DNA of 64,000 nt from Candidatus Enterousia sp. (GCA_045651525.1 JAZRSO010000004.1:17127-81126), one strand, 5' to 3'. Counted from the stretch's first letter, positions 3,146-34,678 are shown. The notes: generated by a model from the letters alone, not told the origin. Numbers and translations: made by a program.

Positions 3146-3376
3146 AAAATTCTTTGTACTTTTATTATGTGATGTGTTATAATTCACAGGTCAACGGGTG
3201 TTTGTTGACTGGGTTTAGCGACCCATTGGTAAGCGTCATGTAAAGACGTAAAAACTTATTCCAACCATTGGTTGGAGTGTGTGAATATATTGAATAAGCA
3301 CGCAATTCTTACTATTGTCGCTAAACTCCAACCACTCGTACAATAAAATACGGTGGTTTTTGTTTTGGGGGATGTG

Positions 3377-4174: not shown

Positions 4175-4192
4175 ATGTATGGAGAAAGTGTA

Positions 4193-10945: not shown

Positions 10946-11668
10946 ATGAAAAAACTGATAATGTTATGTGGTGTGTTGGCTGTATTGGCTGGGTGCGCTG
11001 GTGGCGACACAGAAATTGTTGCAGATATGCCATTGGCGGATATTTATAAATCTGCATATGATAACTTTAACGATGGTGACTATGAACAGGCGGCAATGGA
11101 TTTCTTGCGTGCAGAAACACAACATCCGGCAAGTGCGTATGCCGCAGATGCGCTGGTTATGGCGGCGTATTCGCAGTACTTAGACGATGATTTCGCAGGT
11201 GCAATATTGACCACAGACAGATTTATGCGATTTCACCCAGGGCACGCAGATGTACCATATGTAATGTATTTGCGCGGAATGTGCTATTACCGTCAGGTCA
11301 GTGACGTTCGTCGTGAACCTGGTATGTCTGCGTACGCATTGCAACAGTTCCAAACACTGGTTCAGCGTTTTCCACGCAGTCCATACGCCAAGAATGCTGA
11401 AAATAAAATAAATATCTTGAAAAACTATATCGCGGGCAAGGTTATGTATTCTGCGCGTAACGATATGCGCAAAGAAAACTGGACCAGTGCGATAAATCGC
11501 TTGCAATCAATCGTGACAGACGCCCAAGAAACCGTCATGCCGGCCGAGGCATTATATCGCCTGACAGAATGTTATACGGCGATTGGATTGCCACAACAGG
11601 CGAACGGTTATGCAGAAATGTTAAAATTAAACTTTCCAGACAACGAATGGACAAAAAAGTTGAAATAA
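10946..11668 (+). CDS. bamD: Outer membrane protein assembly factor BamD, a TPR lipoprotein.
   Basis: The lipobox is LAGCAG. TPR-like repeats follow. The size of 240 aa and the alphaproteobacterial context are typical for BamD. Confidence 0.8.
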   Translation: MKKLIMLCGVLAVLAGCAGGDTEIVADMPLADIYKSAYDNFNDGDYEQAAMDFLRAETQHPASAYAADALVMAAYSQYLDDDFAGAILTTDRFMRFHPGHADVPYVMYLRGMCYYRQVSDVRREPGMSAYALQQFQTLVQRFPRSPYAKNAENKINILKNYIAGKVMYSARNDMRKENWTSAINRLQSIVTDAQETVMPAEALYRLTECYTAIGLPQQANGYAEMLKLNFPDNEWTKKLK

Positions 11669-11695
11669 AATCCCCCATTTGGGGGCTTTTTTATT
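11669..11695 (+). terminator. Rho-independent terminator after bamD.
   Basis: TCCCCCatttGGGGGcttttttatt lies immediately after the stop at 11668. Confidence 0.7.
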
Positions 11696-11696
11696 A

Positions 11697-11728
11697 TTGA
11701 AAAAGATGTAAATTTTGATAGAATATAA
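11697..11728 (+). promoter_or_regulatory. Candidate sigma70 promoter of a structured leader or sRNA upstream of the secreted protein gene.
   Basis: TTGAAA is followed by a 16-nt spacer and TAGAAT/TATAAT. Downstream lie about 200 nt of hairpin-rich sequence ending in a terminator at 11915..11945. Confidence 0.35.
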
Positions 11729-11914
11729 TTTGAACTGACAGGGATGTCGGTTCGGGCCTTAGAAAAGCCAAACAGTTTCGGTGCAAAACGCATCGTAAAT
11801 CCGATGATGTCGGTGTTTTTGCACCGTTATTTTTACCACCCCCGATTATGGTCGGGGTGCCGTTGTAATATATTGAACGCAACGGGGTCACTAAACTGTT
11901 GATTTTTCTAACAC

Positions 11915-11945
11915 CCCGACCGTCATTTCTGTGACGGTTTTTGTT
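11915..11945 (+). terminator. Terminator or attenuator hairpin immediately upstream of the secreted protein gene start.
   Basis: GACCGTCAtttctgTGACGGTttttgtttt ends 13 nt before the ATG at 11958. Confidence 0.5.
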
Positions 11946-11957
11946 TTGGGAAAAATC

Positions 11958-12902
11958 ATGCGTAAATTATTGGTTGTTTTATTTGTCTGTATTGTGTTTT
12001 GCGCAAATGCACGTGTGTTGCATGTGGACGATAATGTAATAAAACTGTCACAAACAAAAACAACCGACCCCGCCCTGCACGTCCGTATTGGTGATGAATT
12101 ATGGTATGGGAATATGGGGCGCTGTACACTTCCTATGAACGAAAGCACAGACAAAGAATTAAAAGTAAGATACAATGATACAGATTATTGGGTGTCAGAT
12201 CATACAGGTTATATTATCCAAGATGGAAAATTAACAGATGTATTATGTAATGTGTATTTAATGGGGACAGGGACACAATTGATCGATACATTGCACGTAC
12301 CAACGCTGGTCACACGCAGTGAATTAGAATTAAAATTTTCTGATGACAATAAAAAATCAGATGGACGTGTTATTTTTTTTGGAATCTATGATTTTTATGA
12401 TACAAAATCGTCTTATGGGCTAAATTTTGGTGCGGGCGGACAATATTATGGTATCTATCCATGGATTTGTGCATTTAATGGCGAAGGTGGACCGTCTTGG
12501 TGCAGAAGTTTTGGAAGTCTTAATATTTCACAAAAATTAAAAACAACCAAACAACTGGTTGTTTTAGATGCAAAAAATAATTATGTACAATACGGGAATC
12601 AAACTAAAGTGCTACAAGGTCGTAAAACCACTGAAAAAGAATCTGTTATATTGTTTGGGGGGCGTTATACAGATAAAAATAATAATAAAAAATTGCTCGC
12701 TTATCAGCAAACAGATGCTATGTACATATATTCCACCAAGATATACGAAGATGACGTTCTTGTTCGGCATTTTGTGCCGGTGCCATGTGGGTTAAAAATT
12801 GGGGATTTTGTTGTGCCATCTAATGGCATGTGGGATATTGTAGAACAAAAATTTTATGGCAACATTGGAACTGGTGATTTTATTTATGGCGTGGATAAGT
12901 AA
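11958..12902 (+). CDS. Secreted hypothetical protein of 314 aa.
   Basis: The ATG at 11958 gives the signal peptide MRKLLVVLFVCIVFCANA. No recognizable domain was found. A conserved terminator lies downstream. Confidence 0.6.
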   Translation: MRKLLVVLFVCIVFCANARVLHVDDNVIKLSQTKTTDPALHVRIGDELWYGNMGRCTLPMNESTDKELKVRYNDTDYWVSDHTGYIIQDGKLTDVLCNVYLMGTGTQLIDTLHVPTLVTRSELELKFSDDNKKSDGRVIFFGIYDFYDTKSSYGLNFGAGGQYYGIYPWICAFNGEGGPSWCRSFGSLNISQKLKTTKQLVVLDAKNNYVQYGNQTKVLQGRKTTEKESVILFGGRYTDKNNNKKLLAYQQTDAMYIYSTKIYEDDVLVRHFVPVPCGLKIGDFVVPSNGMWDIVEQKFYGNIGTGDFIYGVDK

Positions 12903-12906
12903 ATGT

Positions 12907-12935
12907 AAAAAAATCCCCCAATCGGGGGATTTTTA
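12907..12935. terminator. Bidirectional terminator of the ATCCCCC/GGGGGAT type.
   Basis: aaaaaaATCCCCCaatcGGGGGATtttt lies between the convergent stops at 12902 (+) and 12933 (-). Confidence 0.7.
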
Positions 12936-13379
12936 AGAGATTTTTTCAACGCGTCTGACGCGGCGTTCGCAGTTGTCAAATGGACTTTCCAAAAATGCCT
13001 GAACAGTCAGGAATGCAACCTCGATATCAATGTCGTCTGCGGCCAATGCCAAAACATTTATATCGTCGTGAAATCTGTCGTCGCGTGCCTGGTTCGGTGT
13101 GTTGCAACGTGATGCACGAATGTGTTTATATCTGTTCGCGGCAATCATTACGCCCGCCCCTGTGCCACAGATAATAATACCGCGTGAATTTGGGTCGTCC
13201 AACATTGCATCTGCCAATGTCGCGGCAACATCTGGGTAATCCGCAGATGTGTTCGGATCGTCAACCCCTAAATTTACAGCGTTATATCCAGCTGCAGCCA
13301 ACATTTCGATTAAGTATAATTTCAATCCAACCCCACGATGGTCGGCCGCAACAAAAACACGTGATACATTTTTATTCAT
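12933..13379 (-). CDS. rpiB: Ribose-5-phosphate isomerase B.
   Basis: RpiB/LacAB signature (RVFVAADHRGVGLK..IIICGTGAGVMIAANR). Its start overlaps the bactofilin stop as TAATG. Confidence 0.85.
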   Translation of the reverse strand: MNKNVSRVFVAADHRGVGLKLYLIEMLAAAGYNAVNLGVDDPNTSADYPDVAATLADAMLDDPNSRGIIICGTGAGVMIAANRYKHIRASRCNTPNQARDDRFHDDINVLALAADDIDIEVAFLTVQAFLESPFDNCERRVRRVEKIS

Positions 13380-13738
13380 TATTTTTTTCCTTTCTTTTCG
13401 TCTGTGCGTTTAGACAGTTTGCAATCCAGACCTGTGTTGCCTGTGATATTCAATGTGTTATACGCCAATGTGCCGGTCATTTTTGCCGCGTTAAAGACAT
13501 TTGCAGTGTTTACCGTCGCAGAACCGTCCAATGTGCCATGTAAAAATAATACAGGTGCGTTTACGTCGCCAATAACAACGCCACCACGACCAATTACAAC
13601 TGTTTCCGCAGTAATGTTACCCACAACTTCGCCATGGATTTGAACATTGTGGTCTGTTTTTATGTCGCCTGTTAGTTTGCAACCTGCCCCAATGACTGTT
13701 GGTGATTGCTTTTCTGATGCGTTTGTAAATGCCAGCAT
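13379..13738 (-). CDS. Bactofilin (DUF583), a polymer-forming cytoskeletal protein.
   Basis: It shows a beta-helical repeat pattern with regular hydrophobic periodicity (VIGAGCKLTGDIKTDHNVQIHGEVVGNITAETVVIGRGGVVIGDV). The ATG at 13738 follows an AAGGGGA Shine-Dalgarno sequence and lies 1 nt after the M23 peptidase stop. Confidence 0.75.
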   Translation of the reverse strand: MLAFTNASEKQSPTVIGAGCKLTGDIKTDHNVQIHGEVVGNITAETVVIGRGGVVIGDVNAPVLFLHGTLDGSATVNTANVFNAAKMTGTLAYNTLNITGNTGLDCKLSKRTDEKKGKK

Positions 13739-15020: not shown

Positions 15021-15700
15021 GTCTGGTATATTCTAGACAACGTATCGGCAATAGTCAAGCCATCACGCAAAATCATATCACAGTTCATAGATATTCCGCG
15101 GTGTAAAACGCTGATTCCGCGTGTGCCAAGTCTGCCCGAAATTAAAACGCGTTCTGCGGTGTTTTTTGCACCAAAAAGTGGTAAAATATTTATATCGCCC
15201 AACTTTTTTGACATTTCTGAAACTGCGCGTGCTGTGGTGGCTGCGTCTGTGATAATACAGAAAGTGCCCATTGGGCGCACACGTGCAACGCAACGCGAAA
15301 TCCATAACGATAAATCTGCGTTATGATGCGCGTTATGCTGTGCCGGCGTACCATTAAAATAAGGTGGGTTTGTTATAACCAAATCAAATGTGCGGTCTGA
15401 TTTCCATGTGGTAATATCTGCATTTATCAATTCAATGTTTGCATTGTTTAATTCTGCATTTGATTTACACTCGTTTAACATTTGTTCTGATATATCAAGG
15501 CCTGTAATCTGGGCGTCTGGATTGTTTGCCAGCAGACACAAAGATGCACCACCGGTGCCAATGCCGACATCCAATACAGTCTTGGCATCCGTTGGTGCAA
15601 ATGCAGCCAGCCACACCGCATCAGATGTTGGATTATAAAAACCACGGTGCATTTTAACGCGCCCGCCCATCAGGGTAAAAATGTCTTGTTTTGTAGTCAT
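15014..15700 (-). CDS. SAM-dependent N6-adenine methyltransferase with an NPPY motif, similar to tRNA m6A37 YfiC/TrmN6.
   Basis: It contains VLDVGIGTGGASL and DLVITNPPY. Its stop overlaps the M23 peptidase start. Confidence 0.6.
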   Translation of the reverse strand: MTTKQDIFTLMGGRVKMHRGFYNPTSDAVWLAAFAPTDAKTVLDVGIGTGGASLCLLANNPDAQITGLDISEQMLNECKSNAELNNANIELINADITTWKSDRTFDLVITNPPYFNGTPAQHNAHHNADLSLWISRCVARVRPMGTFCIITDAATTARAVSEMSKKLGDINILPLFGAKNTAERVLISGRLGTRGISVLHRGISMNCDMILRDGLTIADTLSRIYQTC

Positions 15701-15740
15701 ATCTATTTATAATAAAGTATTCAAATCAAAAGGCAAGTTT

Positions 15741-16727
15741 ATGTTAAATGATATGGCGATTGTACAAAGTGCGGCAAGTGCGTTCAATAATGCAGCGTTG
15801 GTGGCCCCTGCGTTTTTATGGTGGGCGATTTTAATGTTACCGTTATATGTGGCTGTGTATTGGTACGGATGTGATTTTATGATGCGCATTGGTTGGAATC
15901 GTGGCAATTTATTGGCCAAGGTTTCTTTTTGGACTGTGGTGTTTGGGGGCGCATGGACTGTGTTATTTAGTGGTAACTATGCGGTGTTGCGTGATGATTT
16001 GTCTGTTTTGCCAATGTTGACTGCGGTTATTGTCTTTTTATCGTCTTTGTTTGTATCTTCGCATTTACGGGGTGTTGCCCTGCCCCATATGCGCTGGAAA
16101 CAGTGGTTGTTTGTGCTGGCTGTATTGGTAATGGTTGGGTTGTCCGACACGCATGCATGGTGGGGGCCGTTGTTACAGATTTTTGCGTTGTTTGGTGGTG
16201 TGCTGGTTGGGCGTTTCGCAGGCGGTGCAATGCGACCAATGGGCGGAACTGTATTGATTATGATGACGATTATTATTGCAGTCTTAATGCAACCAGAATT
16301 TTTCAGATTTGGTCAGTTGGGTAATTTAACAGTCTTTCATTTATTGGCGATATTGCTGTTTGGAATTGTGTCTGTTGCGACTGTTGTTGTGTCTAATGTT
16401 CGGTCTAAGAATAAAATCCAAGATAGCTTATTCATAAAATTAAAGTGGCTGTGGCGTGTGGCGTGTTTGTTGGGGTGTGCATTATTTATGCTGACCGAGG
16501 CTGTACCAGTTCTGCTGGGGACATTGATTGCGTTTGCGATTATGTTTATAATGTCTGTATGGCATGCAAAAAATATAAACAATGCCCTTGGGGACAAGTT
16601 GTTCGCAGTCAGCTTATTCTTGTTTGGTGTAATCTGTGTTATGCCAGTGGTCAGTGCCATGGGAATTTTGTATTGGTTAAATACTTCTGATTGCAAATTG
16701 TGGCAGGAATCCAAGGTCTTGTTATAA
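15741..16727 (+). CDS. Polytopic inner-membrane hypothetical protein with about 10 predicted TM segments.
   Basis: The ORF spans 15681..16727 and was trimmed to the ATG at 15741. The protein is highly hydrophobic with no recognizable motif. Confidence 0.55.
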   Translation: MLNDMAIVQSAASAFNNAALVAPAFLWWAILMLPLYVAVYWYGCDFMMRIGWNRGNLLAKVSFWTVVFGGAWTVLFSGNYAVLRDDLSVLPMLTAVIVFLSSLFVSSHLRGVALPHMRWKQWLFVLAVLVMVGLSDTHAWWGPLLQIFALFGGVLVGRFAGGAMRPMGGTVLIMMTIIIAVLMQPEFFRFGQLGNLTVFHLLAILLFGIVSVATVVVSNVRSKNKIQDSLFIKLKWLWRVACLLGCALFMLTEAVPVLLGTLIAFAIMFIMSVWHAKNINNALGDKLFAVSLFLFGVICVMPVVSAMGILYWLNTSDCKLWQESKVLL

Positions 16728-18791: not shown

Positions 18792-19016
18792 ATGCGTTTA
18801 TTACTTGTTGGGATTATTTGCTTGTTTTGTGGCGCTGCATTTGCAGAAGAAGCACCAGTAACTGGTGGTACAGGCACCGCTGACACAACTGTGTCTAATG
18901 TTGCACAACAGGTTCCGAATCGTAAGTACGTAGATTTAATGGCTAATTCTGTTCCTATCGAACGACCATCAGATAATGCACCTGAAGGTCGTGCATTGGT
19001 TTGGATTGAAGAATAA
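18792..19016 (+). CDS. Small secreted hypothetical protein of 74 aa.
   Basis: A strong AAAGGAGAAAAG Shine-Dalgarno sequence precedes the start. The signal peptide is MRLLLVGIICLFCGAAFA. A terminator follows. Confidence 0.5.
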   Translation: MRLLLVGIICLFCGAAFAEEAPVTGGTGTADTTVSNVAQQVPNRKYVDLMANSVPIERPSDNAPEGRALVWIEE

Positions 19017-19034: not shown

Positions 19035-19065
19035 AAAAATCCCGCGATTGCGGGATTTTTTTACT
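19035..19065. terminator. Bidirectional terminator.
   Basis: aaaaATCCCGCGattGCGGGATttttttt lies between convergent genes. Confidence 0.7.
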
Positions 19066-19075
19066 GAACCTTGGT

Positions 19076-19393
19076 TTATCGCAGACCTTTGGCGCGACAG
19101 CATGCAGATGCAGCGGCCTGCCAGCTGGGGTATTCTGTTGATGGACTGCGTAGGTCACGCCATGGTTGCCAGCCACTGCAACGTTTGTTTGAACCGTTGC
19201 CAGTGCATTTTGCATAGCGACGCAATGAACATGTTTGATTTGAAACACGACCCATATCTGTTGTGCATTTTACAACAATGTTTTGGTTTTTTGCATCATT
19301 TTTACCCAGTTCTTTGGATGACATAACCTGATACGCATTTGCGGTGCAAATGGCCGTAATTATCATAACAGATGCGATAAGTATTTTTTTCAT
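19076..19393 (-). CDS. Small secreted Cys-rich hypothetical protein of 105 aa.
   Basis: An AAGGGGGC Shine-Dalgarno sequence precedes the start. The signal peptide is MKKILIASVMIITAICTANA. The mature protein contains 8 Cys. Confidence 0.55.
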   Translation of the reverse strand: MKKILIASVMIITAICTANAYQVMSSKELGKNDAKNQNIVVKCTTDMGRVSNQTCSLRRYAKCTGNGSNKRCSGWQPWRDLRSPSTEYPSWQAAASACCRAKGLR

Positions 19394-19466
19394 TATTGCC
19401 CCCTTGCCTGTTGTATATGTGTATTATAGGGAATTGTTTTATTAAATACAATGGGAATCTGTGCGT

Positions 19467-21206
19467 TTATTGGTTGGTTGTCCATGGTACGTCGTTCATA
19501 ATCAGATAATACAGTTCTGGGGTATCTGTATCAATTCCGCGCAGAACAGGTCTGACGACATAAATGTCAACATTGCATGGGCTGTTAGTATCATTTTGCA
19601 CTTCCATTAAATCTTCGTGGAATTTAGCGGCAAAATCCATTGCTTGCAGATATGCGGCATCATCATCAGCGGCAGATACAGAATCCCCCGCCCACATCAG
19701 CCACATACCATAATTCACAACGTTTTCTTGACCTTTGATATCATCGGCAGATAACAACAGTAATGGCTTGAATTCGACATCGTTGGTGAATTCACCGGTG
19801 CTGGTTTCTGTGAAATCGTACATATTACCAACAAATTTAATGGCGCCGTACAACAGGCCTGTATTTGCGGTCATCTTGGCCAATGTACTGGCGTTTTTAA
19901 GTGTAGAATGAAACAGCCAATCTTTTACGCGTGTGGATAATTTACTGGCGCGTGCGGCCTTGGCGCCCTTGGCCAGAATTTTGTTGCCGTTAAATGCGGC
20001 GCGTGTTGCCTTGGTAACCTTGACGGCGCGGGCAAAGACGTTGCCACGATGTGCCTGTTTGGTTATTGCCTTGGCACCCTGTAATGTTTTGCGATATTTT
20101 TGCAGGTCGCTGTATGCGTCGGCCTGTTCGATATATTTTTTTACATCGTCGCTGTTTTCAATTGTTTTTAATGCGTCTTTGATTTTGTCCAGTTCGGCCG
20201 TTTTATCGGCGATTTTTGCGGCGTCTTTGACCTTGTCCAGTGCTGCGATTTCCTTGGTCAGTTTGGTTACCTGTCCCGATGTTTTGATGTAATCACGTAC
20301 AGAATCCAGTTTTCGTAATGCGCCCAATGATTTAGACAGGTCTCGCATAGTTTTTGTTGCGCGTATTCCTTTGAGTCCCCCAGAAACAAACGCACTGCCC
20401 CCCAGTGTCGCGACGGTCAGAATAACGTCCGCAGCGATTTCTGCATATCCAATCCATTCAAGGTTTATATCGCCTGCAACATAATATTCGTTTGAATCAT
20501 CGCCCGTTGCCAATGCGCCGGCGCGATTCAGTGCCAGTTTGTTGCCAGTAATTGCACTGCGTGATGTGCACGCGCCACCATTTAGTGATGCATTTGGATA
20601 GAATTTATCAATGTTATCGTTTATGTATTTTAATGACAGTGTGTTATTTTTTTGGGGACCAACAAATTCGTTTAATGCGCCCGATTGAACAACCATAATT
20701 CCATACCATGCTGGTTCTGTATTTGTCCAAACGGTTGGGTCGCCATTTTCACCAATACGCGGATTTGGGTCAGATGTTGGCAACGTGCGTTTATTTGCCG
20801 TCAATATACGTTGTTTTATAATCTTTGGCTGTGTTTCATAGTTTATTGCAATCAAGCGCCCATTTGGAAAAGTGTATTGAATTGGTGTAAAACGAATTGT
20901 GTCTTCGTTACCCAAATTTGCCAGTTCTGGACATTCCAATACGCGTGTCAGTGTTTGTCCATCGTAGAATATATCGTAAATCCATTGTTGTATAACTTCT
21001 TCGGGGGCAGATTCATCAACGTTTTGTGCGGTTTGTGCCAATTGGTCTGCCCAAATTTTGGATGCGCACGGTGTGTCTGCATTTTGAATGGCGGCTTGTT
21101 CCAATTCTGCCAACGACACTGCATCATCTGGCACAATAACATCATTTGCATTGGCAGAATTATGATACTGTATTATAATCAATGATAATAGTAATGTTTT
21201 AATCAT
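19467..21206 (-). CDS. Exported membrane protein of 579 aa. It has an N-terminal domain, a hydrophobic segment, a Lys/Ala-rich amphipathic region, a second hydrophobic segment and a C-terminal domain. It is a paralog of 21199..22581.
   Basis: The signal peptide is MIKTLLLSLIIIQ. The hydrophobic segments are IAADVILTVATLGGSAFVSGGL and TGLLYGAIKFVGNMY. The central KxxK-rich stretch runs from KTMRDLSKSLGALRKL to AKGAKAARASK. Confidence 0.55.
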   Translation of the reverse strand: MIKTLLLSLIIIQYHNSANANDVIVPDDAVSLAELEQAAIQNADTPCASKIWADQLAQTAQNVDESAPEEVIQQWIYDIFYDGQTLTRVLECPELANLGNEDTIRFTPIQYTFPNGRLIAINYETQPKIIKQRILTANKRTLPTSDPNPRIGENGDPTVWTNTEPAWYGIMVVQSGALNEFVGPQKNNTLSLKYINDNIDKFYPNASLNGGACTSRSAITGNKLALNRAGALATGDDSNEYYVAGDINLEWIGYAEIAADVILTVATLGGSAFVSGGLKGIRATKTMRDLSKSLGALRKLDSVRDYIKTSGQVTKLTKEIAALDKVKDAAKIADKTAELDKIKDALKTIENSDDVKKYIEQADAYSDLQKYRKTLQGAKAITKQAHRGNVFARAVKVTKATRAAFNGNKILAKGAKAARASKLSTRVKDWLFHSTLKNASTLAKMTANTGLLYGAIKFVGNMYDFTETSTGEFTNDVEFKPLLLLSADDIKGQENVVNYGMWLMWAGDSVSAADDDAAYLQAMDFAAKFHEDLMEVQNDTNSPCNVDIYVVRPVLRGIDTDTPELYYLIMNDVPWTTNQ

Positions 21207-22581
21207 CTATTCTTATACCATCAATAAGCAATCCGACATCTCCATTTCCTTGGGGCAATAATGTGCTTTGATCGTATAATGGTACGCCGATATACATATC
21301 TATGTCATCTTCATTCCAATCGCAATTTCCTGAATTTTGAATGGTGCTACTAATTGCTGATTTTATTTTTTCCCATTGTTCTTGTGTTGTCATAAGCACG
21401 TCTCCGGCAGATGGGACTCCTTTGTTGTTTATTTCACGCAATACATAATTGCTATTTTCGTCAATACATAGCCGTTTACCTAATATTGGCTTGAATACCT
21501 TTTCATTTAAATCGTCTGTTGGACTGTTCAAATTGTCTTTTGTGCAAGAAGTGTAGCAACCTTCTCTTTTATCTGTGTCGGTACAATTCATTATTTGCGT
21601 GTCTAAGCCGGATTCTAGAAAACTATAAACAATACCCAAGCCACCTGCTGCTGCGATTGGAGTAGAAATTGCAAATGTTGTCATTGCACGCTTTAATGCT
21701 GCTGTTGCTAATGCTTCTGTTGTTGTTGCTTTAACCGTTTTTTTTGCGGCATCTTTGGCAATTGCATCGTTTAATAGCGTTAATGCTTGTTTGCCGGTGC
21801 TGGATTGTACAGTACCATTTGCTATGTTTCGTTCAATTTCTTTTTTTATGGCTTGTTTAGAGATTCGTTTGCCACCTTTTTTCTTTAAGGCCTCTTTTGT
21901 TTGAGCAACAAGGGTGTTTGCCATGGCTTTTTTTGTAGCGTCTGTAGCCGCTTTTTGTGCTGCTTTTACAGCTGCTTCTTTCCCTGCTTCGACCCCTAAT
22001 TTTTTTGCGGTTTGTGTTGCTGCTGCCTTTTTTATTGCTGCTTTTGTTGCAGCTCTACCGCCCTTTTTTACACCAAACTTTATTAATCCTTTTGCGCCTT
22101 CTTTTACAACGACTTTTGCGCCTTGTATTGCTACACCACCTGTGCCACCAGAAAATACGGCAGCGACTATTGTTGTTGCCCACAACGCAGCGTCTATTCC
22201 AGCTTGATATGATCTATTGTTTTCGCATACAAACAATTGTCTTTTATTAGATGTGGTAGTGAGAGCTGCGGCAACCTCCTCAACAATATAATCCCAAGTA
22301 ATATCTATTAGCAATCCGTCTTCTTCGATATATATATCCTCGTCTGGGCTGGTGCGGTTTAATAAGTAATCGCGACACGTATCTATATTCTTTGTAAAAA
22401 ATTCGATTAAACCATCAGAAGTAATTTCAATAGAATCGTTCTCTGTGTCAAAATTATCAAGACTGTTTACAATATCGGTTGCTAATGCGTGTATACATTT
22501 ATCTGAATCGGCGTGTGCAGAAAGTGTTGTTACAAGAACAACAGAAAGAATCGCTAAAAAACGTAATGAGTGTTTAATCAT
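21199..22581 (-). CDS. Exported membrane protein of 460 aa with a Lys/Ala-rich segment between two hydrophobic segments. It is a paralog of 19467..21206.
   Basis: The signal peptide is MIKHSLRFLAILSVVLV. The hydrophobic segments are ALWATTIVAAVFSGGTGGVAI and ISTPIAAAGGLGIVYSFL. The central region reads AATKAAIKKAAATQTAKKLGVEAGKEAAVKAAQKA and continues in the same style. Its start and stop overlap those of the neighbouring genes as ATGA. Confidence 0.55.
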   Translation of the reverse strand: MIKHSLRFLAILSVVLVTTLSAHADSDKCIHALATDIVNSLDNFDTENDSIEITSDGLIEFFTKNIDTCRDYLLNRTSPDEDIYIEEDGLLIDITWDYIVEEVAAALTTTSNKRQLFVCENNRSYQAGIDAALWATTIVAAVFSGGTGGVAIQGAKVVVKEGAKGLIKFGVKKGGRAATKAAIKKAAATQTAKKLGVEAGKEAAVKAAQKAATDATKKAMANTLVAQTKEALKKKGGKRISKQAIKKEIERNIANGTVQSSTGKQALTLLNDAIAKDAAKKTVKATTTEALATAALKRAMTTFAISTPIAAAGGLGIVYSFLESGLDTQIMNCTDTDKREGCYTSCTKDNLNSPTDDLNEKVFKPILGKRLCIDENSNYVLREINNKGVPSAGDVLMTTQEQWEKIKSAISSTIQNSGNCDWNEDDIDMYIGVPLYDQSTLLPQGNGDVGLLIDGIRIDD

Positions 22582-23516
22582 TTTGGAAATGCAGATATTA
22601 TTTTGTTTATGAGTTGTTGTTTTGCCTCGTTGGTTGTTTGACCGCCGTTATTATTGCCGCCGTTATTGTTGCCGCCGTTATTATTTTGGGTGCAATCTGT
22701 ATCGGATGGGTATTTTTTACAAAAATCTGTGTGAGATAAATTCTTTTTGTCTTGTATTTTTTGGAATTCTAATTCTTCCTGGGCAAGTTCTTTTTGCCGG
22801 GTTAGATATTCTTCCTTACTCTCAATATTTAACCTGTCAAATGCGGATACGTCTTTGTATGGTTCGTAACCAATCTTTTCGTTTTCCATGCGTTCGGTAA
22901 ATGATAAATCAGCATATGTTGTTGGAAATGCCGCCGCCTTTATACCGTACTGATTTGTGCCGTTTTGGGATTGCAGGTTTTGTAATTCTTGTTTTTTGTC
23001 CTGTACTTCAACTGCCCAGTCGGGTGCCTGGGGGGCAAATGGATTTTTTATTTGAATTGGTTGAATGCTGTTGTTGTTTGGTGTTGGAAATGCAACAACG
23101 TTCATTTGTGGTGTTGCGCGACCATATTTTGCAACATAATCATTAAATGCACCGTCAATATATCCGCCACAAGATGTCGCGTAATTCCCAGTCGTTATAC
23201 GTGATAGTTGAACCATAACGCTTGGGCGAACGTCTGATAATTCTGCGTTTGCACAATTGTTCATCCCTGCACACGTTATGGCAATTAAATCAGCAACAAC
23301 TTGTTGGCAATCATCTGTGCCAACCTGGGGCCCCATTGCATATACAGGTGATGGTAACCGATTGTTATATGGTGAATCTGGGTTATATGCAGGGTTTGTG
23401 GAATAGTTTTGAACGTTCTGAATCACACCGTATTTTGAGAATATAGACGCAGAATATGCCGGCAAAATCAATGCCATAGTGCCAATAAATGTATAAAAAA
23501 GGTGTGCGCATTTCAT
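22578..23516 (-). CDS. Secreted hypothetical protein with NNNGG repeats near the C-terminus.
   Basis: The ORF begins with TTG at 23522. The first ATG, at 23516, gives the signal peptide MKCAHLFYTFIGTMALILPAYSA. The C-terminus reads NNNGGNNNGGNNNGG. It lies 22 nt downstream of the prepilin peptidase gene. Confidence 0.5.
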   Translation of the reverse strand: MKCAHLFYTFIGTMALILPAYSASIFSKYGVIQNVQNYSTNPAYNPDSPYNNRLPSPVYAMGPQVGTDDCQQVVADLIAITCAGMNNCANAELSDVRPSVMVQLSRITTGNYATSCGGYIDGAFNDYVAKYGRATPQMNVVAFPTPNNNSIQPIQIKNPFAPQAPDWAVEVQDKKQELQNLQSQNGTNQYGIKAAAFPTTYADLSFTERMENEKIGYEPYKDVSAFDRLNIESKEEYLTRQKELAQEELEFQKIQDKKNLSHTDFCKKYPSDTDCTQNNNGGNNNGGNNNGGQTTNEAKQQLINKIISAFPK

Positions 23517-23543
23517 TCTCAATTCATATCCCTGCTTGATTGA

Positions 23544-24014
23544 TTATAACAAAAACAGATTTGTAATGAAAGATAAAAATCCACCAATAAAGAAAAATGG
23601 TGCAAATGGTATATATTTTTGATTTTTATTCTTGGCCCATAATGTCCCCAGTATGCACGCGATAATCAGTGCGATTGCCAACCCATTTGTGCCCAGCCAC
23701 ATGCCACCTACCCCCAGTAACTTTATGTCGCCCATCCCAATCGGTGCGCATGCGTCTGGGTTCTGTTTGGTAAGTTTATAATCAAATACAGCGCCAATAA
23801 TTGCAGACATTAAATAACCAAACGCCCCGCCAATAACCGCAGATTGCAGCGTTATCGGAAAAGAATAAAACGCAATCAATGTCAGCCCAATCAACATCAA
23901 TGGAAACAAGTATGCGTCTGGAATAATACGACGACGAAAATCTGTGACGGAAATTAAAATTGATAAAATTGCGGCGATAACCAGTAAAATAATGAAAAAG
24001 ATGTAAGAAATCAT
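23544..24014 (-). CDS. Type IV prepilin peptidase, A24 family, of the short TadV/CpaA-like form.
   Basis: The protein is polytopic and 156 aa long, with Asp-containing motifs (TDFRRRIIPD...GMGDIKLLGVGGMWLG). An AAGGGAGA Shine-Dalgarno sequence precedes the start. It is the first gene of a four-gene minus-strand operon. Confidence 0.7.
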   Translation of the reverse strand: MISYIFFIILLVIAAILSILISVTDFRRRIIPDAYLFPLMLIGLTLIAFYSFPITLQSAVIGGAFGYLMSAIIGAVFDYKLTKQNPDACAPIGMGDIKLLGVGGMWLGTNGLAIALIIACILGTLWAKNKNQKYIPFAPFFFIGGFLSFITNLFLL

Positions 24015-24087
24015 ATTTTTCTCCCTTGCGTTTCGAATCGGAAATATGCTACACTTATATTATAATGTAATACAAGGGTTTTGTAAA

Positions 24088-24678
24088 ATGAGTACAGGTT
24101 GGGATAACGCAACATTAAAAAAACTGAAAGCATTGACAGGCAAAGGGCTGTCAACGTCTGAAATTGGTAAACGTTTGGGGATGTCAAAAAATGCCATCGT
24201 GGGTAAGTTAAATCGCTTGGGCTGGAATGCCAAGGCTGGCGGTGCGACGGCTGCAACTGTGGCAACGGCCAAAAAAACAGAAAAAAAGCCGGCTGCGAAG
24301 AAAACAGCGGAGGTATCTGCAAAAAAAGCAACGGTGGCGAAAAAGGCACCTGTAAAAAAGGAAACGGCGGTCAAGGCGCCTGTAAAAAAAGCAGAAAAAA
24401 AGCCAGTCGATAAACAAGAAGTCGCTGTGGCCAAGGTTAAACCTGTCAAGGAATCAACCAGCACCAAGGTTAGTGATAAAAATTTGGCTGTACATCAGCG
24501 TATCATTCAACATTCGCTGGAAATGGCAAATCTGAAACCAAATCAGTGCCGTTGGCCGATCGGCGATCCCGATTCGGAACATTTTCATTTCTGTGGTGAA
24601 ACAGTGTTTGTCGGTAAACCTTATTGTTATGAACACTGCAAGCAGGCGTATCAATTCGCAGCACCAAAGAAAAAATAA
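24088..24678 (+). CDS. gcrA: Cell-cycle regulator GcrA.
   Basis: The N-terminal HTH reads MSTGWDNATLKKLKALTGKGLSTSEIGKRLGMSKNAIVGKLNRLGW. A Lys/Ala-rich linker follows, and the conserved C-terminus reads CRWPIGDPDSEHFHFCGETVFVGKPYCYEHCKQAY. Confidence 0.85.
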   Translation: MSTGWDNATLKKLKALTGKGLSTSEIGKRLGMSKNAIVGKLNRLGWNAKAGGATAATVATAKKTEKKPAAKKTAEVSAKKATVAKKAPVKKETAVKAPVKKAEKKPVDKQEVAVAKVKPVKESTSTKVSDKNLAVHQRIIQHSLEMANLKPNQCRWPIGDPDSEHFHFCGETVFVGKPYCYEHCKQAYQFAAPKKK

Positions 24679-24701: not shown

Positions 24702-26858
24702 ATGGTAAACGAGAGAGAGAATTTAAATCAATCATTGAAAGCAACTGATTTTAATATCGGTGGCGATGTTTTTCGTGCCTATTACGACCCAAATGGTCAA
24801 TTGTTGTTTGTTGTTGATTATCTGATAACAGATATTAAACCAAATGTTTTGCTGGTTATAAATCCAGATGGTGAACGTAAATGGGATGATATCTTGGAAA
24901 ATGACTATGGCGTTGATTTGGAAACTGTTCGGCCTAAAAAAGATAACAAATATCAAAAACTGGATATCGAATATTCTGGGCTGGATTTGTATGACGATTT
25001 AATCCGCGCTTATCTTGATGGTTCAGATACGGCCGCACAGGCACATAAATTAAACGAATTTAGAAAGATTTCTGTGGCGCGTTCTGCACAAGAAAGACTG
25101 AACGATGCGATGAAGACAACAGAAAATGCCAGCGATACAATCGATAAAACAAATGAAAAAATCTATCAATTACAACAAACGATTCGTGACTTGAAAAATA
25201 AACTGACTGTGGCACGTCGCGCAATCGGCAAAGAACCAACAAAACAATCAGCGTCAAAGATATTGCGTCTGGAATCTTTGATTGATATGAACGAAGAAAA
25301 ATTAAAACGTGCAAAAAAACGTCTGGTAAACGCACAGCGTCGCTTGGAAAATGCTGGCGATGATGTTGTTGCTGCACAGGGTTTGTTGGCAAGGCTGAAT
25401 AAAAATCTGCCCGCACGCCCATTAAATACAGGTGTTGCAACGGTGGCGGATGTTCCTGTGCCGGCAATCGTTGATGATGACGAAGACGATGACGATGATT
25501 TTGAAACTGAATTTGAAAATGAAACAAAGGCAGAAGATATGGCTGATGAAGATGTAAAACCGTTGTTTGATACTGATCCAAATATTTTGGACGAAGAAAT
25601 CGCGTTTAAACCAATCGAATTTAATAACGATGTACCACAAAATGTACCTGCTGTGGCGCCTGAAAATAATTTGATTGTCAGTGATGTTGCAGAACCTGCG
25701 CCTGTTGTAGATAATTCTTTTGTGCCAAGTTTTGCAGAAGAAACAGTAACAGAAGAAACTGTACCGGCGCCATTGTCTTTTGCGCCACCGTCATCGTTTG
25801 AAACGGTTGAAACGCCAGTCTTGTCATCAGAAGACGATACAATTAAACCGATGTTTGATGGTTTTACATCGTTTCCAGAAATGGAAGAACAGGAAACAGA
25901 AACAACAACTTGGACGCCAACACCGATTGTTCAAGAAGAAAGACCTGTCCAAGATGTTTTGGCGCCTGTGACACCATCTGTGACTGCGGATTCAATGCCA
26001 GATGTTGCCCCTGCTCCAATTTCATCGGATTTTCGCCCTGTGTCACCAATTCATAACGAAAATATGGATCTAAAGCCTGTGGTAACACCTGTGTCTGATG
26101 CTGGTTCCGCACAGGGCAAGCCAACATTGTTGTATTATGTGTTGCTGATTGTGCTGATTGCGATGTCAATATTTACACTGTGGTTTTATCAAAAGTCTTC
26201 TAATGAAAATATGCCAGAATTAGCGGCATCAACAGAACCTGCGCCGGCGGTTGTCGAAGAAGAACCTGTGGTCGCAGAACCAGAAACCGAAGTTGTTGTT
26301 GAAGATGTAATTCCAGAACCGGTGATGGTAACAGAACCTGAGCCAGAACCTGTGACAGAACCAGACCCTGAAATTACTCCAGAACCAGTACCTGTGACAG
26401 AACCAGAATCTGAAATTATCCCAGAACCTGAAATAATTCCAGAGCCTGTACCTGTTACAACAGAACCTGTGGTTGAAAATCCATTTGTTGATTTGCCTGC
26501 TGGTGCGATTGTTGGGCCTGTGGCGGATGTGATTCCAGAACCAGAACCTGTTATCGTTCCAACCGAAGAAGAAGTGCTTGCGACTAAACCCGCGTATGGT
26601 GTGTCACAACAGGAAAAAATGTTCGTTGCAGATGATAATTATGAAACAGAAACGGTTGTTGAATCTGTTGAACCAACAATTATTCGTGCGCCACAAGATA
26701 CAGAACAAGTTGTCGTAGAAGAATCGGTTGATGTATGTTCTGATGGCAATGCACCAGACAGTTATGGTTGCTGTAACGGCGAAGAATTTGTTTTGTTACC
26801 CGATGGCGAACAGGCCTGTTGCGCAGAGAGTACGGGTGAATGTTTCCCACCCATGTAA
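24702..26858 (+). CDS. Large acidic membrane-anchored protein of 718 aa. It has an N-terminal coiled coil, a D/E-rich region, a mid-protein TM segment, PEPxP repeats and a Cys-rich C-terminus.
   Basis: A GGGGGA Shine-Dalgarno sequence precedes the start. The D/E-rich stretch reads DDDEDDDDDFETEFENE. The TM segment is LLYYVLLIVLIAMSIFTLWFY. The repeats read PEPVPVTEPESEIIPEPEIIPEPVPVT. The C-terminus reads CSDGNAPDSYGCCNGEE...CCAESTGEC. Confidence 0.6.
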   Translation: MVNERENLNQSLKATDFNIGGDVFRAYYDPNGQLLFVVDYLITDIKPNVLLVINPDGERKWDDILENDYGVDLETVRPKKDNKYQKLDIEYSGLDLYDDLIRAYLDGSDTAAQAHKLNEFRKISVARSAQERLNDAMKTTENASDTIDKTNEKIYQLQQTIRDLKNKLTVARRAIGKEPTKQSASKILRLESLIDMNEEKLKRAKKRLVNAQRRLENAGDDVVAAQGLLARLNKNLPARPLNTGVATVADVPVPAIVDDDEDDDDDFETEFENETKAEDMADEDVKPLFDTDPNILDEEIAFKPIEFNNDVPQNVPAVAPENNLIVSDVAEPAPVVDNSFVPSFAEETVTEETVPAPLSFAPPSSFETVETPVLSSEDDTIKPMFDGFTSFPEMEEQETETTTWTPTPIVQEERPVQDVLAPVTPSVTADSMPDVAPAPISSDFRPVSPIHNENMDLKPVVTPVSDAGSAQGKPTLLYYVLLIVLIAMSIFTLWFYQKSSNENMPELAASTEPAPAVVEEEPVVAEPETEVVVEDVIPEPVMVTEPEPEPVTEPDPEITPEPVPVTEPESEIIPEPEIIPEPVPVTTEPVVENPFVDLPAGAIVGPVADVIPEPEPVIVPTEEEVLATKPAYGVSQQEKMFVADDNYETETVVESVEPTIIRAPQDTEQVVVEESVDVCSDGNAPDSYGCCNGEEFVLLPDGEQACCAESTGECFPPM

Positions 26859-26900: not shown

Positions 26901-27074
26901 CTCATGTAACTTCTGTACACTACGGTTGTGGGTTTGTTCATATCTATACCATTCTATTTAATTTCTTCGCTAAGTGTGGGTGGTGGTGGCGCCCCTCATG
27001 TAACTTCTGTACACTATGGTTGTGGGTTTGTTCATATCTATACCATTATATTTAATTTCTTCGCAAAGTGTGGG
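26901..27074. repeat. Tandem direct repeat of two copies, each 94 bp and about 93% identical, with a flanking 13-bp stem hairpin.
   Basis: Copy 1 is 26901..26994 and copy 2 is 26995..27074. Both read ctcatgtaacttctgtacactayggttgtgggtttgttcatatctataccattmtatttaatttcttcgcwaagtgtggg. The stem CAAACCCACAACC (26889-26901) pairs with GGTTGTGGGTTTG (26924-26936). Confidence 0.8.
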
Positions 27075-27097
27075 CGATGTGGTATAATAAAGATAAT

Positions 27098-28309
27098 ATG
27101 TTTAAAATAAATCGAGTGTTTTTATTCGTATTTGTTTGCACAAAGGCAATTGCAGTTTGCCCAAATGGTTATCATAGTAATACGATTGATATTTCAAAAC
27201 TTAGTTCGGAAGAAAAAGGCATTTGGCAAGCCTCGGTCGCTACTTATACGCACTATTCATATACATCACAAGGATTAAAAACACGATGCGAGGGGTATGA
27301 TAACAGAATTGCAGGTGGTTGGTTTGGAACAGATGAAGGCGGTACATGCATTGATTGTCGATTTGATAATATGAAACATGGTGATTGGTATATAGAATTT
27401 GATTCTGAGAAAAGCGGTTTTTCAACTTTGCGTGGAACTAGTGCATGTATATCAACTTCCTATGCGTCTGGTGTTGGGGTTGGGCAGCCGTCAGATAGCG
27501 TTAATCCATCGCCAGGTGAACGTTCTGGCAGCAGTTGTTGGTGTAAGTTGTTGTCAATTGATGAAATTGCGGTTGATTCAAGATGGTTATATGATGGTTC
27601 TAATGGTCATTGGCCTTCGAGTACTTGTGTGCAAGAATGTGCGCAGACATGTGCGTCAGAAATAAGAAATTTATCAAATAAAATGTTAAAATCGATGTTT
27701 GCTTATACAAAAAAATCAGTTGTTAGTGGGTGTACTGCTAATAATCAAGAGATATATAATATTACATATGATTTAGCAGGTGGGCAGAATTACAAAGATG
27801 CACCTTTTTGTTATAAAATAACGTCTGGTGACATTGTTTTTGGACAGCCTGTTAAATCTGGTGAAGTTTTTGCATATTGGAAAAATGATAAAAACAAGGT
27901 GATTGATTCTATTGTACAGGGACAGACAGGAGATATTCATTTAATCGCTCAGTGGAGGTCAAATTTATTATGTCCTGCGGGACAATATTTATTTGATGGT
28001 TTGTGTGTGAATGTTGGTGCTGGTTTTTATTCGCCGGCAGATGATAATCTACGCTATCAATGTCCAAATAATTTGACGACACGTGGATATGGTTTTGCGT
28101 CAGATGAACTTGGCGACTGTGGCTATAAACTGCATGTCGGAAAGCAACAAATATTTTTACGCAGTCAGAAAAATACAAGCCCATCATTTTGTGCAAAAAT
28201 AAATAACAAGGTATTTTATGGTTCTATGACTAGTAACGATAAATGTGCGTTGTGTACGAAATATAAAGGTGTTAATTACTCTATACATGATGATTCTATG
28301 TACGATTAA
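27098..28309 (+). CDS. Secreted Cys-rich multidomain protein. It combines a CWC...CVxECAxxC core, a segment resembling the Listeria-Bacteroides (InlB B-repeat / Flg_new) repeat, and CxxGY-type Cys repeats.
   Basis: The signal peptide is MFKINRVFLFVFVCTKAIAVC. The core reads GTSACIS...SSCWCKLLS...STCVQECAQTCASE. The Flg_new-like stretch reads YNITYDLAGGQNYKDAPFCYKITSGDIVFGQPVKSGEVFAYWKND...IHLIAQW. The Cys repeats read LCPAGQYLFDGLCVNVGAGFY..CPNNLTTRGYGF. Confidence 0.65.
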   Translation: MFKINRVFLFVFVCTKAIAVCPNGYHSNTIDISKLSSEEKGIWQASVATYTHYSYTSQGLKTRCEGYDNRIAGGWFGTDEGGTCIDCRFDNMKHGDWYIEFDSEKSGFSTLRGTSACISTSYASGVGVGQPSDSVNPSPGERSGSSCWCKLLSIDEIAVDSRWLYDGSNGHWPSSTCVQECAQTCASEIRNLSNKMLKSMFAYTKKSVVSGCTANNQEIYNITYDLAGGQNYKDAPFCYKITSGDIVFGQPVKSGEVFAYWKNDKNKVIDSIVQGQTGDIHLIAQWRSNLLCPAGQYLFDGLCVNVGAGFYSPADDNLRYQCPNNLTTRGYGFASDELGDCGYKLHVGKQQIFLRSQKNTSPSFCAKINNKVFYGSMTSNDKCALCTKYKGVNYSIHDDSMYD

Positions 28310-33108: not shown

Positions 33109-33764
33109 TTGTTGGCTCCGTCTGTGTTATCAGGTTGTGTATTCAGGTTTATTAATTTGTAGCCCTGCCCCCTGATGGTTATTATATCTAAATCAGATAA
33201 TACAATATTTAATTTACTTCGCAAGCGTTTTGCAACCATTGGTGACGCAGGTGCAATATTACCCATTGGACAAGTTAAATTTTGTAACAGTCTTTTTTCT
33301 TCGCCAGACAGTGCCAATAAGGTCGGCGTGCCGTTTTGTGTTATGAAAAATTCATTGTCAACCAGTGTAAGCCCAAATGGCAACTGTGATGATGTTGTTG
33401 GGTTTTGTGGAATAATGTTGTTTAATCGCAGTACCAGTTCTCGCATTTGGAAGGGTTTGGCCAGATAATCATTTGCACCACCTGCCAGTCCGTCAATTGT
33501 GTTTTCTGGGCCTGTCATCGCAGTCAGCATAATCACAGGTGTTTTATTTCCTTGTGCGCGTAATTTTTGCAAGAACCTCAGACCGTCCATGCCAGTCATC
33601 ATTCTGTCTAGAATAATTGCATCAACAGAAATACGTGATAAAATTTCGTTCCCATCTTCGGCAGATTGTGCCGTCAGAACGTTAAAGCCATCTGAACGCA
33701 GTCCCTTGGACAGCGTATTGCGTAAAATATCGTCGTCATCAATAATTAAAACGGTTTTATTCAT
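33105..33764 (-). CDS. OmpR-family response regulator.
   Basis: The receiver domain reads VLIIDDDDILRN...DAIILDRMMTGMDGL...KPF. The C-terminal winged helix contains RGQGYKL. Confidence 0.85.
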   Translation of the reverse strand: MNKTVLIIDDDDILRNTLSKGLRSDGFNVLTAQSAEDGNEILSRISVDAIILDRMMTGMDGLRFLQKLRAQGNKTPVIMLTAMTGPENTIDGLAGGANDYLAKPFQMRELVLRLNNIIPQNPTTSSQLPFGLTLVDNEFFITQNGTPTLLALSGEEKRLLQNLTCPMGNIAPASPMVAKRLRSKLNIVLSDLDIITIRGQGYKLINLNTQPDNTDGANK

Positions 33765-34678
33765 CTTTTTACTGGTTCAACGGCATATTCCCCAGGTTGA
33801 ATCATGCGTGCGTCGTTTGCAGACATGTTGTCCAGGTCATATGTTGCGGCACGGAATTGCATGCCACCGGTTGTAAATTCTGTTTTAAACAGTGCGTATC
33901 CTGTACCGCCACCTGTTGTTGGTCCCTGCATTCCCAGCGAATAATATCCGCCCATAATACCATAATCCAAGTCAATGTAATCCAAGCTTACGATCAAAGA
34001 TACACTGCTGATGCCATCGCTGGTCATATTACATGCAAATTCACGGTTGGATAATACCGCCTCGGAATTTACGGGTACCATAATATCCATAACGGTTGGT
34101 TCACACTTGCGGTCAATTCCGTTTACCAAGAATTCATATGTCATACCAACAGTTGCCTTGGACAGACCTGTTGAAACGCTGACCTGTGAAATGGTTGCTT
34201 TGGGTATTTTAACCATGGCGTTTGCAATACCGCTGCGTACAGGGAATGAAATACCAGATTGCAGACAATCGCGTGAGAATGGGTCAGCTTCGCATATATA
34301 AACGCGTGAGTGTGCGTTCATCATAAACATATTTGCCAAGCTGTTAAACAAGAAAGAACGTGTGATACGGTCGTTCAGGCGTGTGCAACCAAAATTACGG
34401 CAAATAACCATTGGACGGTCTGCGAACATAACGCCTGGGTGGGCGGCAGATTCAATTTTGCGTGCCTCGATAATATTCTGGTCATAGTCTAAACTGTCTG
34501 CGCGTTCCATAAATTCTGTTTCTGGAATAAAATTTGGGTCGTCTGGATATGCATAATAAGACTGAACAGGTGTTTCAGTGTATATTGTCTGAAAATCCTG
34601 ATAAATAAATTCGTCTTGTGCATAGGCGGAAAATCCGCAGAATACTGCAAAAATTGATGTTAAAAATGTTTTCAACAT
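33761..34678 (-). CDS. Secreted hypothetical protein of 305 aa, translationally coupled upstream of the two-component genes.
   Basis: The signal peptide is MLKTFLTSIFAVFCGFSAYAQD. Its stop overlaps the regulator start as ATGA. No recognizable domain was found. Confidence 0.55.
   Translation of the reverse strand: MLKTFLTSIFAVFCGFSAYAQDEFIYQDFQTIYTETPVQSYYAYPDDPNFIPETEFMERADSLDYDQNIIEARKIESAAHPGVMFADRPMVICRNFGCTRLNDRITRSFLFNSLANMFMMNAHSRVYICEADPFSRDCLQSGISFPVRSGIANAMVKIPKATISQVSVSTGLSKATVGMTYEFLVNGIDRKCEPTVMDIMVPVNSEAVLSNREFACNMTSDGISSVSLIVSLDYIDLDYGIMGGYYSLGMQGPTTGGGTGYALFKTEFTTGGMQFRAATYDLDNMSANDARMIQPGEYAVEPVKR

Follow-up and report, generated by a model that had tools for sequence, protein, structure and literature searches.

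A stretch of 64,000 nucleotides from Candidatus Enterousia sp. (GCA_045651525.1, JAZRSO010000004.1:17127-81126), hereafter the window, carries on its minus strand an operon that opens with a prepilin peptidase of family A24 and continues with four exported proteins, p314, p460, p579 and p105. We read it, with a probability of about 0.35, as a lineage-specific, co-transcribed envelope module: p314, p579 and p105 would make its conserved core, the gene lodged between p314 and p579 a swappable membrane-inserting subunit, a muramidase an optional addition, and the A24 enzyme a maturation protease. The evidence comes from a gene order retained in about 70 species, from protein fusions that join the products to one another, from a middle gene that belongs to unrelated families in different species, and from a peptidase with intact catalytic residues. 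The peptidase is the only member of a known family in this operon (in relatives a GH108 muramidase must be added); the other four families, and the architecture that they form, match no described system, which makes the locus new in gene content.

Organization of the operon

All positions are those of the whole window, and tokens of the type ATGATTAA stand for sequence letters. Five minus-strand genes form a tightly packed unit, together with a repeat and a terminator:

23544-24014, minus strand: gene of the A24 peptidase (156 amino acids), first of the operon
22578-23522, minus strand: p314 (314 amino acids from a TTG start, 312 from an ATG), Sec-exported and modular
22642-22685, minus strand: NNNGG repeat, three copies (Tandem Repeats Finder: 15 nt, 2.9 copies), a low-complexity linker of p314 near the C-terminus
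21199-22581, minus strand: p460 (460 amino acids), occupant of the middle slot, type A
19467-21206, minus strand: p579 (579 amino acids), conserved core protein
19076-19393, minus strand: p105 (105 amino acids), last gene of the unit
19035-19060, minus strand: intrinsic terminator, AAAAATCCCGC-AATC-GCGGGATTTTT, as read from the sequence

The unit extends from a promoter-like site at 24059-24087 to the terminator at 19035-19060. The stop codon of the peptidase gene is separated from the start of p314 by 21 nt (TTG) or 27 nt (ATG), p314 and p460 share the four nucleotides of an ATGA, and p460 and p579 overlap by the eight nucleotides ATGATTAA. That this is a single operon follows from the promoter-like site (11 of 12 positions matched in a promoter scan), from the lone clean terminator located after p105, and from these 4- and 8-nt overlaps. 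An earlier note on this DNA, based on its sequence, had described four genes, with a 22-nt gap followed by ATGA overlaps. The four open reading frames (ORFs) are found where it placed them, contiguous on the minus strand, and the gap (21 nt from the TTG) and the p314/p460 overlap stand, but the p460/p579 junction is of another kind, and a fifth gene, p105, situated beyond the coordinates of that note, precedes the only clean terminator. The note was right that three secreted proteins follow the peptidase: Sec-type signal peptides are found at the N-termini of p314, p460 and p579, and p105 is likewise exported. As for the NNNGG repeats, which it saw as ending a protein, they are indeed present in p314, but near its C-terminus rather than at its end.

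Rfam, run over the operon region, matches only the terminator hairpin. Being palindromic, this hairpin could also stop the convergent ORF at 18792-19016, of 74 codons, the product of which has a signal peptide and matches no family. A possible promoter of its own for p105, TTGTAT-17-TATAAT, lies upstream of that gene, at about 19419-19447.

Conservation in uncultured gut bacteria

Bacteria of the Rs-D84/Enterousia group are widespread in animal and human guts. Genomes of the order span 0.75-1.0 Mb, lack most biosynthetic pathways, and probably belong to organisms depending on partner cells (PMC12306168). We followed the block through the 80 best p579-bearing species-level genomes, those of Candidatus Enterousia and its relatives; in one of them the chromosome is circular and measures 958,618 bp. 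Wherever coverage is adequate, the locus displays, with hardly an exception, the same order, with p718 and gcrA pointing one way and, back to back with them, the genes for A24, p314, a variable middle protein, p579, in some species GH108, and finally p105. The four-gene block, whose conservation the earlier note had wished to see checked, stays together in about 70 species-level genomes, and the distance between the A24 and p314 genes has a median of 22 nt over 72 loci. Median identity to the proteins of the window is 60% for A24, 47% for p314, 54% for p579, 66% for GcrA and 73% for p105, which thus comes out as the most conserved member of the block, above GcrA itself.

All homologs of the block proteins belong to uncultured Alphaproteobacteria of the gut and rumen. 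For p579 there are at least 866 of them, and a scan limited to one genome per species found relatives encoded in 218 species; when the family profile was run exhaustively against 1.84 billion cluster representatives, only 137 matched. Homologs of p314 amount to 286, none of them named. Public copies of the block proteins are called ‘hypothetical protein’ where they have a name, and most have none. No family of Pfam, NCBIfam, PHROGs or PADLOC is recognised in p314, p460, p579 or p105, A24 and GcrA being the only proteins named among those searched. Sequence and profile searches of the exported proteins against PDB chains gave nothing significant, apart from a borderline match to AS-48 discussed below. 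No profile or fold match thus places the exported proteins in a known family, a possibility that the earlier note had kept in view.

The core proteins and their fusions

After its signal peptide, p579 displays an N-domain with three invariant Cys residues, a hydrophobic helix (residues ~245-275) with the conserved pattern YYVAGD-NL-W-...E..A.DV..TV.T.GG, a basic, Lys/Ala-rich helical region of variable length (residues 276-440) and a conserved C-domain (residues 465-579). The AlphaFold2 model has a predicted local distance difference test score (pLDDT) of 58; Foldseek found no fold match for it in the PDB or in BFVD, and profile searches found no match either. For the Lys/Ala-rich hairpins of p579 and p460 two arrangements can be envisaged, a loop in the cytoplasm joining two marginal transmembrane helices, or a periplasm-spanning rod of the kind made by TolA domain II. 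At the far end of the unit p105 is small, basic and Sec-exported, with six invariant Cys residues and a C-terminal CCRAKGLR; it follows p579 or GH108 in 75 loci, and has no hit in the PDB.

p314 associates an N-terminal Cys-containing module (about residues 27-145) with a second module at residues 192-272 (FPTTYADLSFTERM...GYEPYK...FCKKYP..C). It has no hit in Pfam, NCBIfam or the PDB. Its second module is found again in GH108 proteins, at their N-terminus (BLASTP E 1e-17), and the whole of p314 is fused, in other species, to 460-like proteins, to paralogs of p579 or to GH108. Of 80 related loci, about 30 (~40%) encode the muramidase itself after p579. It is absent from the operon of the window, where phmmer with GH108 (PF05838) queries matches only the module shared with p314. 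In one protein, P0355, a p579 family member continues in frame, through a polar linker, into a C-terminal GH108 domain; with no internal signal peptide at the linker, this must be a genuine fusion. Such Rosetta-stone fusions tie together p314, the middle protein, p579 and the muramidase. As GH108 is fused at its end, the C-terminus of p579 would lie on the peptidoglycan side of the membrane.

Other enzymes of the same kind are found close to the block in relatives. Locus L001 has a GH108 gene after the block (11661-12749) and locus L005 an Amidase_3 gene with a convergent Phage_lysozyme gene (11716-13415); together they make local clusters of peptidoglycan-degrading enzymes. Locus L001, from a relative living in the roe-deer gut, also encodes a Cas9 (20670-21671; HNH, RuvC_III and Cas9_RuvC, 973 amino acids) about 9 kb downstream of the block, worth noting in so small a genome.

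A polymorphic middle slot

In p460 a signal peptide and an N-domain are followed by a marginal hydrophobic helix ending with GG (residues 127-149), Lys/Ala-rich helices (residues 151-300), a second marginal hydrophobic segment (residues 300-322) and a C-domain with five invariant Cys residues. AlphaFold2 models it with a pLDDT of 68.9 and a predicted template modelling score of 0.65; confidence is good for the N-domain, for the Lys-rich helices and for the C-domain, but not for the hydrophobic segments. Foldseek found no match to the model in the PDB or BFVD. The profile of the p460 family gave the borderline match to AS-48 (E 0.004-0.02) over 45 residues (about 130-175), which comprise the hydrophobic helix, the GG turn and a cationic helix.

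The earlier note held p460 and p579 to be paralogs, and this has to be abandoned: the best BLASTP E-value between them is 0.40, and hhalign gives probabilities of 1.6% (A1 versus A2) and 4% (A1 versus A3) for the two families, so that detectable homology is ruled out and only a common architecture remains. The latter, which the note had described too, holds for the Lys/Ala-rich stretches and their flanking hydrophobic segments, but the second of these segments is weak in p579. True paralogs of p579 do occur in the middle position, in other species (type B; hhalign 99.9%). Besides the 460-like proteins (type A), the slot between p314 and p579 houses at least two further unrelated families (types C1 and C2) and a singleton (C3). 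These types, at least four unrelated families in all, are scattered patchily over the p579 tree, and their interspersion implies that the middle gene was replaced repeatedly.

All middle-slot types contain Gly/Ala-rich hydrophobic segments, and some of the unrelated occupants are glycine-zipper proteins. Several have sub-threshold hits to Bacteriocin_IIc (PF10439, 17-21 bits for a cutoff of 27.1) and to glycine-zipper families. None reaches significance for a circular or class II bacteriocin family, and with 300-620 residues they do not have the small size of such bacteriocins. Profile searches found no recognised toxin domain among these payloads. No small ORF consistently accompanies the C2 cassettes as an immunity gene would, the next gene being always p579, and p579 cannot be a cognate immunity protein because it is conserved downstream of unrelated cassettes. 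The heterogeneity of the slot is illustrated by the middle cassette of locus L013 (8562-9941), with seven PNPQPG repeats, a glycine-zipper segment and a Cys-rich domain containing CC and CxC.

The peptidase and the search for its usual partners

The first gene of the operon does encode a short A24 prepilin peptidase of the TadV/CpaA type, as the earlier note had it. It matches PF01478 over residues 13-127 (63.3 bits for a cutoff of 26.5, E 3.1e-17), and this is its sole domain: 156 residues and five hydrophobic segments, with neither the N-terminal methyltransferase nor the Cys-rich domain of longer forms. The catalytic motifs TD25FRRRIIPD and GMGD95IKL (GxGD) are intact, and D25 and D95 are invariant across 76 orthologs, so the enzyme is not the degraded remnant that the note had contemplated. 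A tblastn search of annotated plasmids, intended to place it among cpaA and tadV genes, returned no match at E 1e-3, and sequence and profile searches of the PDB nothing significant.

The usual partners of such an enzyme were looked for in the window and, in relatives, within 10 kb on either side of the block. Among about 50 ORFs of the window scanned against Pfam there is no pilin, no Tad gene and no gene of type II or type IV secretion systems, hence no TadA/CpaF ATPase, TadB/C platform or RcpA/CpaC secretin. Six-frame searches of the window and of 1.57 Mb of related loci with strict and loose regular expressions, including the Flp signature G/XXXXEY, yielded no plausible small prepilin-like ORF, and none of the 9301 ORFs of all loci displays a Walker A motif of the PilB/CpaF type. 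The statement of the earlier note that pilin and Tad machinery are missing is therefore borne out over this span, and the class III signal motifs that it advised seeking in small ORFs nearby were not found. Nor is there, in any block protein, a conserved class III (Gly/hydrophobic) junction of the kind cut by A24 peptidases, the N-in/C-out hydrophobic segments of p718, p579 and p314 included.

Elsewhere the window is made of housekeeping and envelope genes, including those of LeuRS, MurJ, BamD, an M23 peptidase, an RlpA-like protein, LpxA/B, SecA, DnaE, PBP5 and DnaK. The window also has many sizeable ORFs (up to 841 codons) without a Pfam match, at 3353-5154, 7646-8473, 11931-12902 and 15681-16727, then at 27068-28309, 33761-34678 and 47236-51111, a high proportion of orphan genes for a genome of about 0.9 Mb.

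A shared promoter region with gcrA

Upstream of the operon the following features are found:

24015-24087, no strand assigned: gcrA/A24 intergenic region, 73 nt
24088-24678, plus strand: gcrA (PF07750, E 5.5e-29), conserved divergent neighbour
24702-26858, plus strand: p718 (718 amino acids), just downstream of gcrA

The match to PF07750 on the opposite strand agrees with the earlier note, in which the operon was said to diverge from gcrA. GcrA probably starts with the ATGAGT (MSTGWD) at 24088, conserved in the loci shown, and not at 24046; other gene callers give it 196 residues, and the longest ORF, of 210 residues, is probably over-extended. A long linker, rich in Lys, Ala and Pro, separates the N- and C-terminal domains of this GcrA.

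The 73 nt of the intergenic region are far more conserved than the proteins on either side (70 species-level genomes, the proteins being only 50-65% identical). The promoter-like site for the minus strand, TTTACA-17-TATAAT, has its -35 element at 24082-24087 and its -10 element at 24059-24064, and of the 40 loci (out of 70) whose sequence was inspected almost all have both. The -10 sits within the palindromic sequence ATTATAAT and, being so placed, could serve both divergent genes. A GANTC site (GATTC) is found at 24035-24039, together with a Shine-Dalgarno-like AAGGGAG. In 68 of 70 loci a GANTC precedes the A24 start by no more than 60 nt, its position being about -25 in 66, and the density of the motif is 9.4 per kb in the intergenic region against a background of 2.4 per kb. 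The fixed position of the site and the conservation of the region hint at control of the CcrM/GcrA type for the operon, for gcrA or for both, and thereby suggest methylation or cell-cycle control.

On the other side of gcrA, p718 is present in every locus whose contig reaches that far. It consists of a cytoplasmic coiled coil, a poly-Asp/Glu tract, one transmembrane segment (residues 475-493), a TonB-like Pro/Glu-rich spacer, and a Cys-rich C-terminal knob with CC. Profile libraries gave no family match for it, only weak hits of the coiled-coil type. It may be an envelope-spanning partner of the products of the operon.

A candidate module at the cell envelope

How the products assemble, how they are inserted in the membrane, what the peptidase does and which purpose the whole fulfils we infer from these features. 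Transcription would start in the highly conserved promoter region, back to back with gcrA. p314, the middle protein (p460 here), p579 and p105 would then most likely join in one membrane-anchored complex on the periplasmic side, a location argued for by the Sec signal peptides, by the invariant Cys sets in the N- and C-domains and by fusion to a peptidoglycan hydrolase. Gly-rich helices of marginal hydrophobicity, on either side of a basic helical hairpin whose length varies, would keep p579 and the middle protein in a membrane. The role of p314 would be that of an adaptor with modules for docking partners, among them, in many species, the GH108 muramidase. The middle subunit would be an exchangeable membrane-inserting cassette, since it is drawn from at least four unrelated families, distributed patchily over the p579 tree, all with Gly-rich hydrophobic segments. 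A24 would be active as a protease dedicated to maturation, its substrate being either a component of the module or a protein encoded elsewhere. Such an assembly would most likely remodel or breach the cell wall and membrane locally, at the cell surface, and it may serve contact with a partner cell.

Several points weigh against this picture. Formation of a complex is deduced from genes and fusions. The second hydrophobic segment of p579 falls under the hydrophobicity threshold, and AlphaFold2 gives, in both p460 and p579, low confidence to precisely those segments that would lie in the membrane. Because no block protein has a class III junction, any functional tie of the peptidase to the genes around it comes down to conserved co-transcription. 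GH108 is missing from the operon of the window and from about 60% of loci. The similarities to bacteriocins do not reach the curated thresholds, and composition by itself may explain them. That these genomes belong to the GTDB order Rs-D84 is taken from the literature, and the coupling with gcrA is equally compatible with a housekeeping role.

A bolder version of the scenario is a long shot. There, A24 would have been recruited away from pili and would cut the non-pilin membrane proteins encoded with it, for example at the cytoplasmic face beside the Gly-rich helices; the periplasmic or membrane-inserting fragments thus freed or activated would constitute, with GH108, a new contact or feeding apparatus, able to breach the wall and membrane of a partner.

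Resemblance to known systems

Several described systems resemble the block in part. The Tad/Flp (type IVc) loci too associate a short A24 peptidase (about 150-170 residues, both Asp residues, no methyltransferase) with an operon of envelope proteins in an alphaproteobacterium. Unlike them, the window and the related loci have no Flp pilin, TadE/F, CpaF/TadA, TadB/C or RcpA/CpaC, and the neighbours of the peptidase have Sec and not class III signals. Maturation of exported non-pilin proteins by an A24 peptidase encoded nearby has a precedent in Archaea, with PibD and the sugar-binding proteins of the ‘bindosome’; these substrates, however, carry canonical class III signal peptides, and none is detectable in the present block. 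The muramidase of the block, encoded in about 40% of species and fused to the p314 module or, in P0355, to p579, recalls the peptidoglycan-lytic enzymes that trans-envelope machines have of their own, VirB1, EtgA, FlgJ and PleA. Here, though, the enzyme belongs to family GH108, comes with no recognisable component of a machine, and is lacking in the operon of the window.

Polymorphic toxin loci share with the block conserved flanks around a hypervariable slot, a putative carrier domain fused to alternative payloads and segments resembling glycine zippers, but an immunity partner, a known toxin domain and a dedicated secretion system are all missing here. With AS-48 and class II bacteriocins the likeness is that of a hydrophobic helix, a Gly-Gly turn and a cationic amphipathic helix (p460 residues ~130-175 against residues 19-65 of AS-48); it concerns 45 residues at an E-value of only 0.004-0.02, within a protein of 460 residues that has globular domains, and no genes for a leader or for cyclisation go with it. 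Finally, the spacers of TolA (domain II) and TonB resemble the long Lys/Ala-rich helices of p460 and p579 and the Pro/Glu-rich spacer of p718, placed as they are next to membrane anchors and globular ends, yet neither sequence nor fold similarity was detected and the block has no partners of the TolQR or ExbBD type.

Other explanations

A possible, if doubtful, explanation is that the enzyme is an ordinary TadV/CpaA peptidase, with pilin substrates and machinery elsewhere in the genome, co-transcription reflecting genome compaction or inherited gene order and the downstream genes coding for unrelated envelope proteins. Prepilin peptidases such as PilD and TadV are often encoded apart from their substrates, this one is a normal short A24 enzyme none of whose neighbours has a class III signal, and the window covers only about 7% of a genome of roughly 0.9 Mb. 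Against this, the linkage of A24 to p314, at ~22 nt and with no terminator between them, is kept in all 72 covered loci despite roughly 50% divergence of the proteins, 1.57 Mb of related loci contain no pilin-like ORF and no ATPase signature of the PilB/CpaF type, and the peptidase is divergent, as witnessed by the failure to match plasmid-borne cpaA or tadV. Indirectly, a survey of Rs-D84 genomes mentions type IV pili for a different lineage only (PMC12306168). It is unlikely, yet worth considering with care, that we face instead a lineage-specific housekeeping complex for wall growth or division, under control of the GcrA/CcrM type, where membrane scaffolds with cytoplasmic basic coiled coils position or regulate periplasmic peptidoglycan hydrolases in the manner of FtsEX-EnvC or RodZ/PodJ. 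Much is consistent with it: the highly conserved promoter region shared with gcrA and its fixed GANTC site, universal retention of the block in genomes below 1 Mb, GH108, Amidase_3 and lysozyme genes in or beside the block in relatives, the extreme conservation of p105, and a putative topology with two transmembrane segments and a basic loop that would fit the positive-inside rule. However, it would be unusual for a core morphogenetic machine to have its middle subunit exchanged for unrelated families over so short a phylogenetic distance, profile libraries reveal no similarity to components of the divisome or elongasome, the role of A24 is left unexplained, and the GANTC site may control gcrA and not the operon.

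The variable cassette between conserved flanks, the fusion of p314, as an N-terminal carrier, to different C-terminal payloads (a muramidase among them) and the weak AS-48, class II bacteriocin and glycine-zipper signals of the hydrophobic segments might also evoke a polymorphic locus for effectors that attack bacteria or partner cells, with the middle protein as a membrane-permeabilising toxin, GH108 as a wall-degrading effector and p314 as a trafficking domain. The partner-dependent lifestyle proposed for these organisms (PMC12306168) would agree with this scenario. It is nevertheless rather improbable: no immunity-like gene co-varies with the cassette, no toxin domain is recognised, no export route is known past Sec, the bacteriocin similarities are sub-threshold, and the proteins look anchored in the membrane of their producer. 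As for a remnant prophage or the lysis cassette of a gene-transfer agent, made of an endolysin and membrane proteins, GH108 and phage-lysozyme domains near the block in some relatives and the Gly-rich hydrophobic segments of the cassettes could bring it to mind. A phage or viral origin was rejected, and this explanation is close to refuted: neither 50,697 phage genomes nor IMG/VR contigs yielded a relative, no PHROG hit is significant, about 70 species keep the block in its place next to gcrA, and the window contains no integrase or structural gene.

Meaning for the lineage

Orphan envelope operons are common in uncultured lineages. The present locus stands above this background because it couples a peptidase to exported proteins that are not pilins, displays a network of fusions and a polymorphic cassette, and shares its promoter region with gcrA. 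Present as five to six genes in every genome examined, with families found nowhere else, the operon is a prime candidate for the defining surface biology of the lineage. If pilins prove absent genome-wide, this would be the first case in bacteria where a peptidase of the prepilin type is stably linked to exported proteins other than pilins. Even with a pilus elsewhere in the genome as the target of the peptidase, the locus would still provide a well-delimited set of new envelope families, with fusions that show which of them work together.

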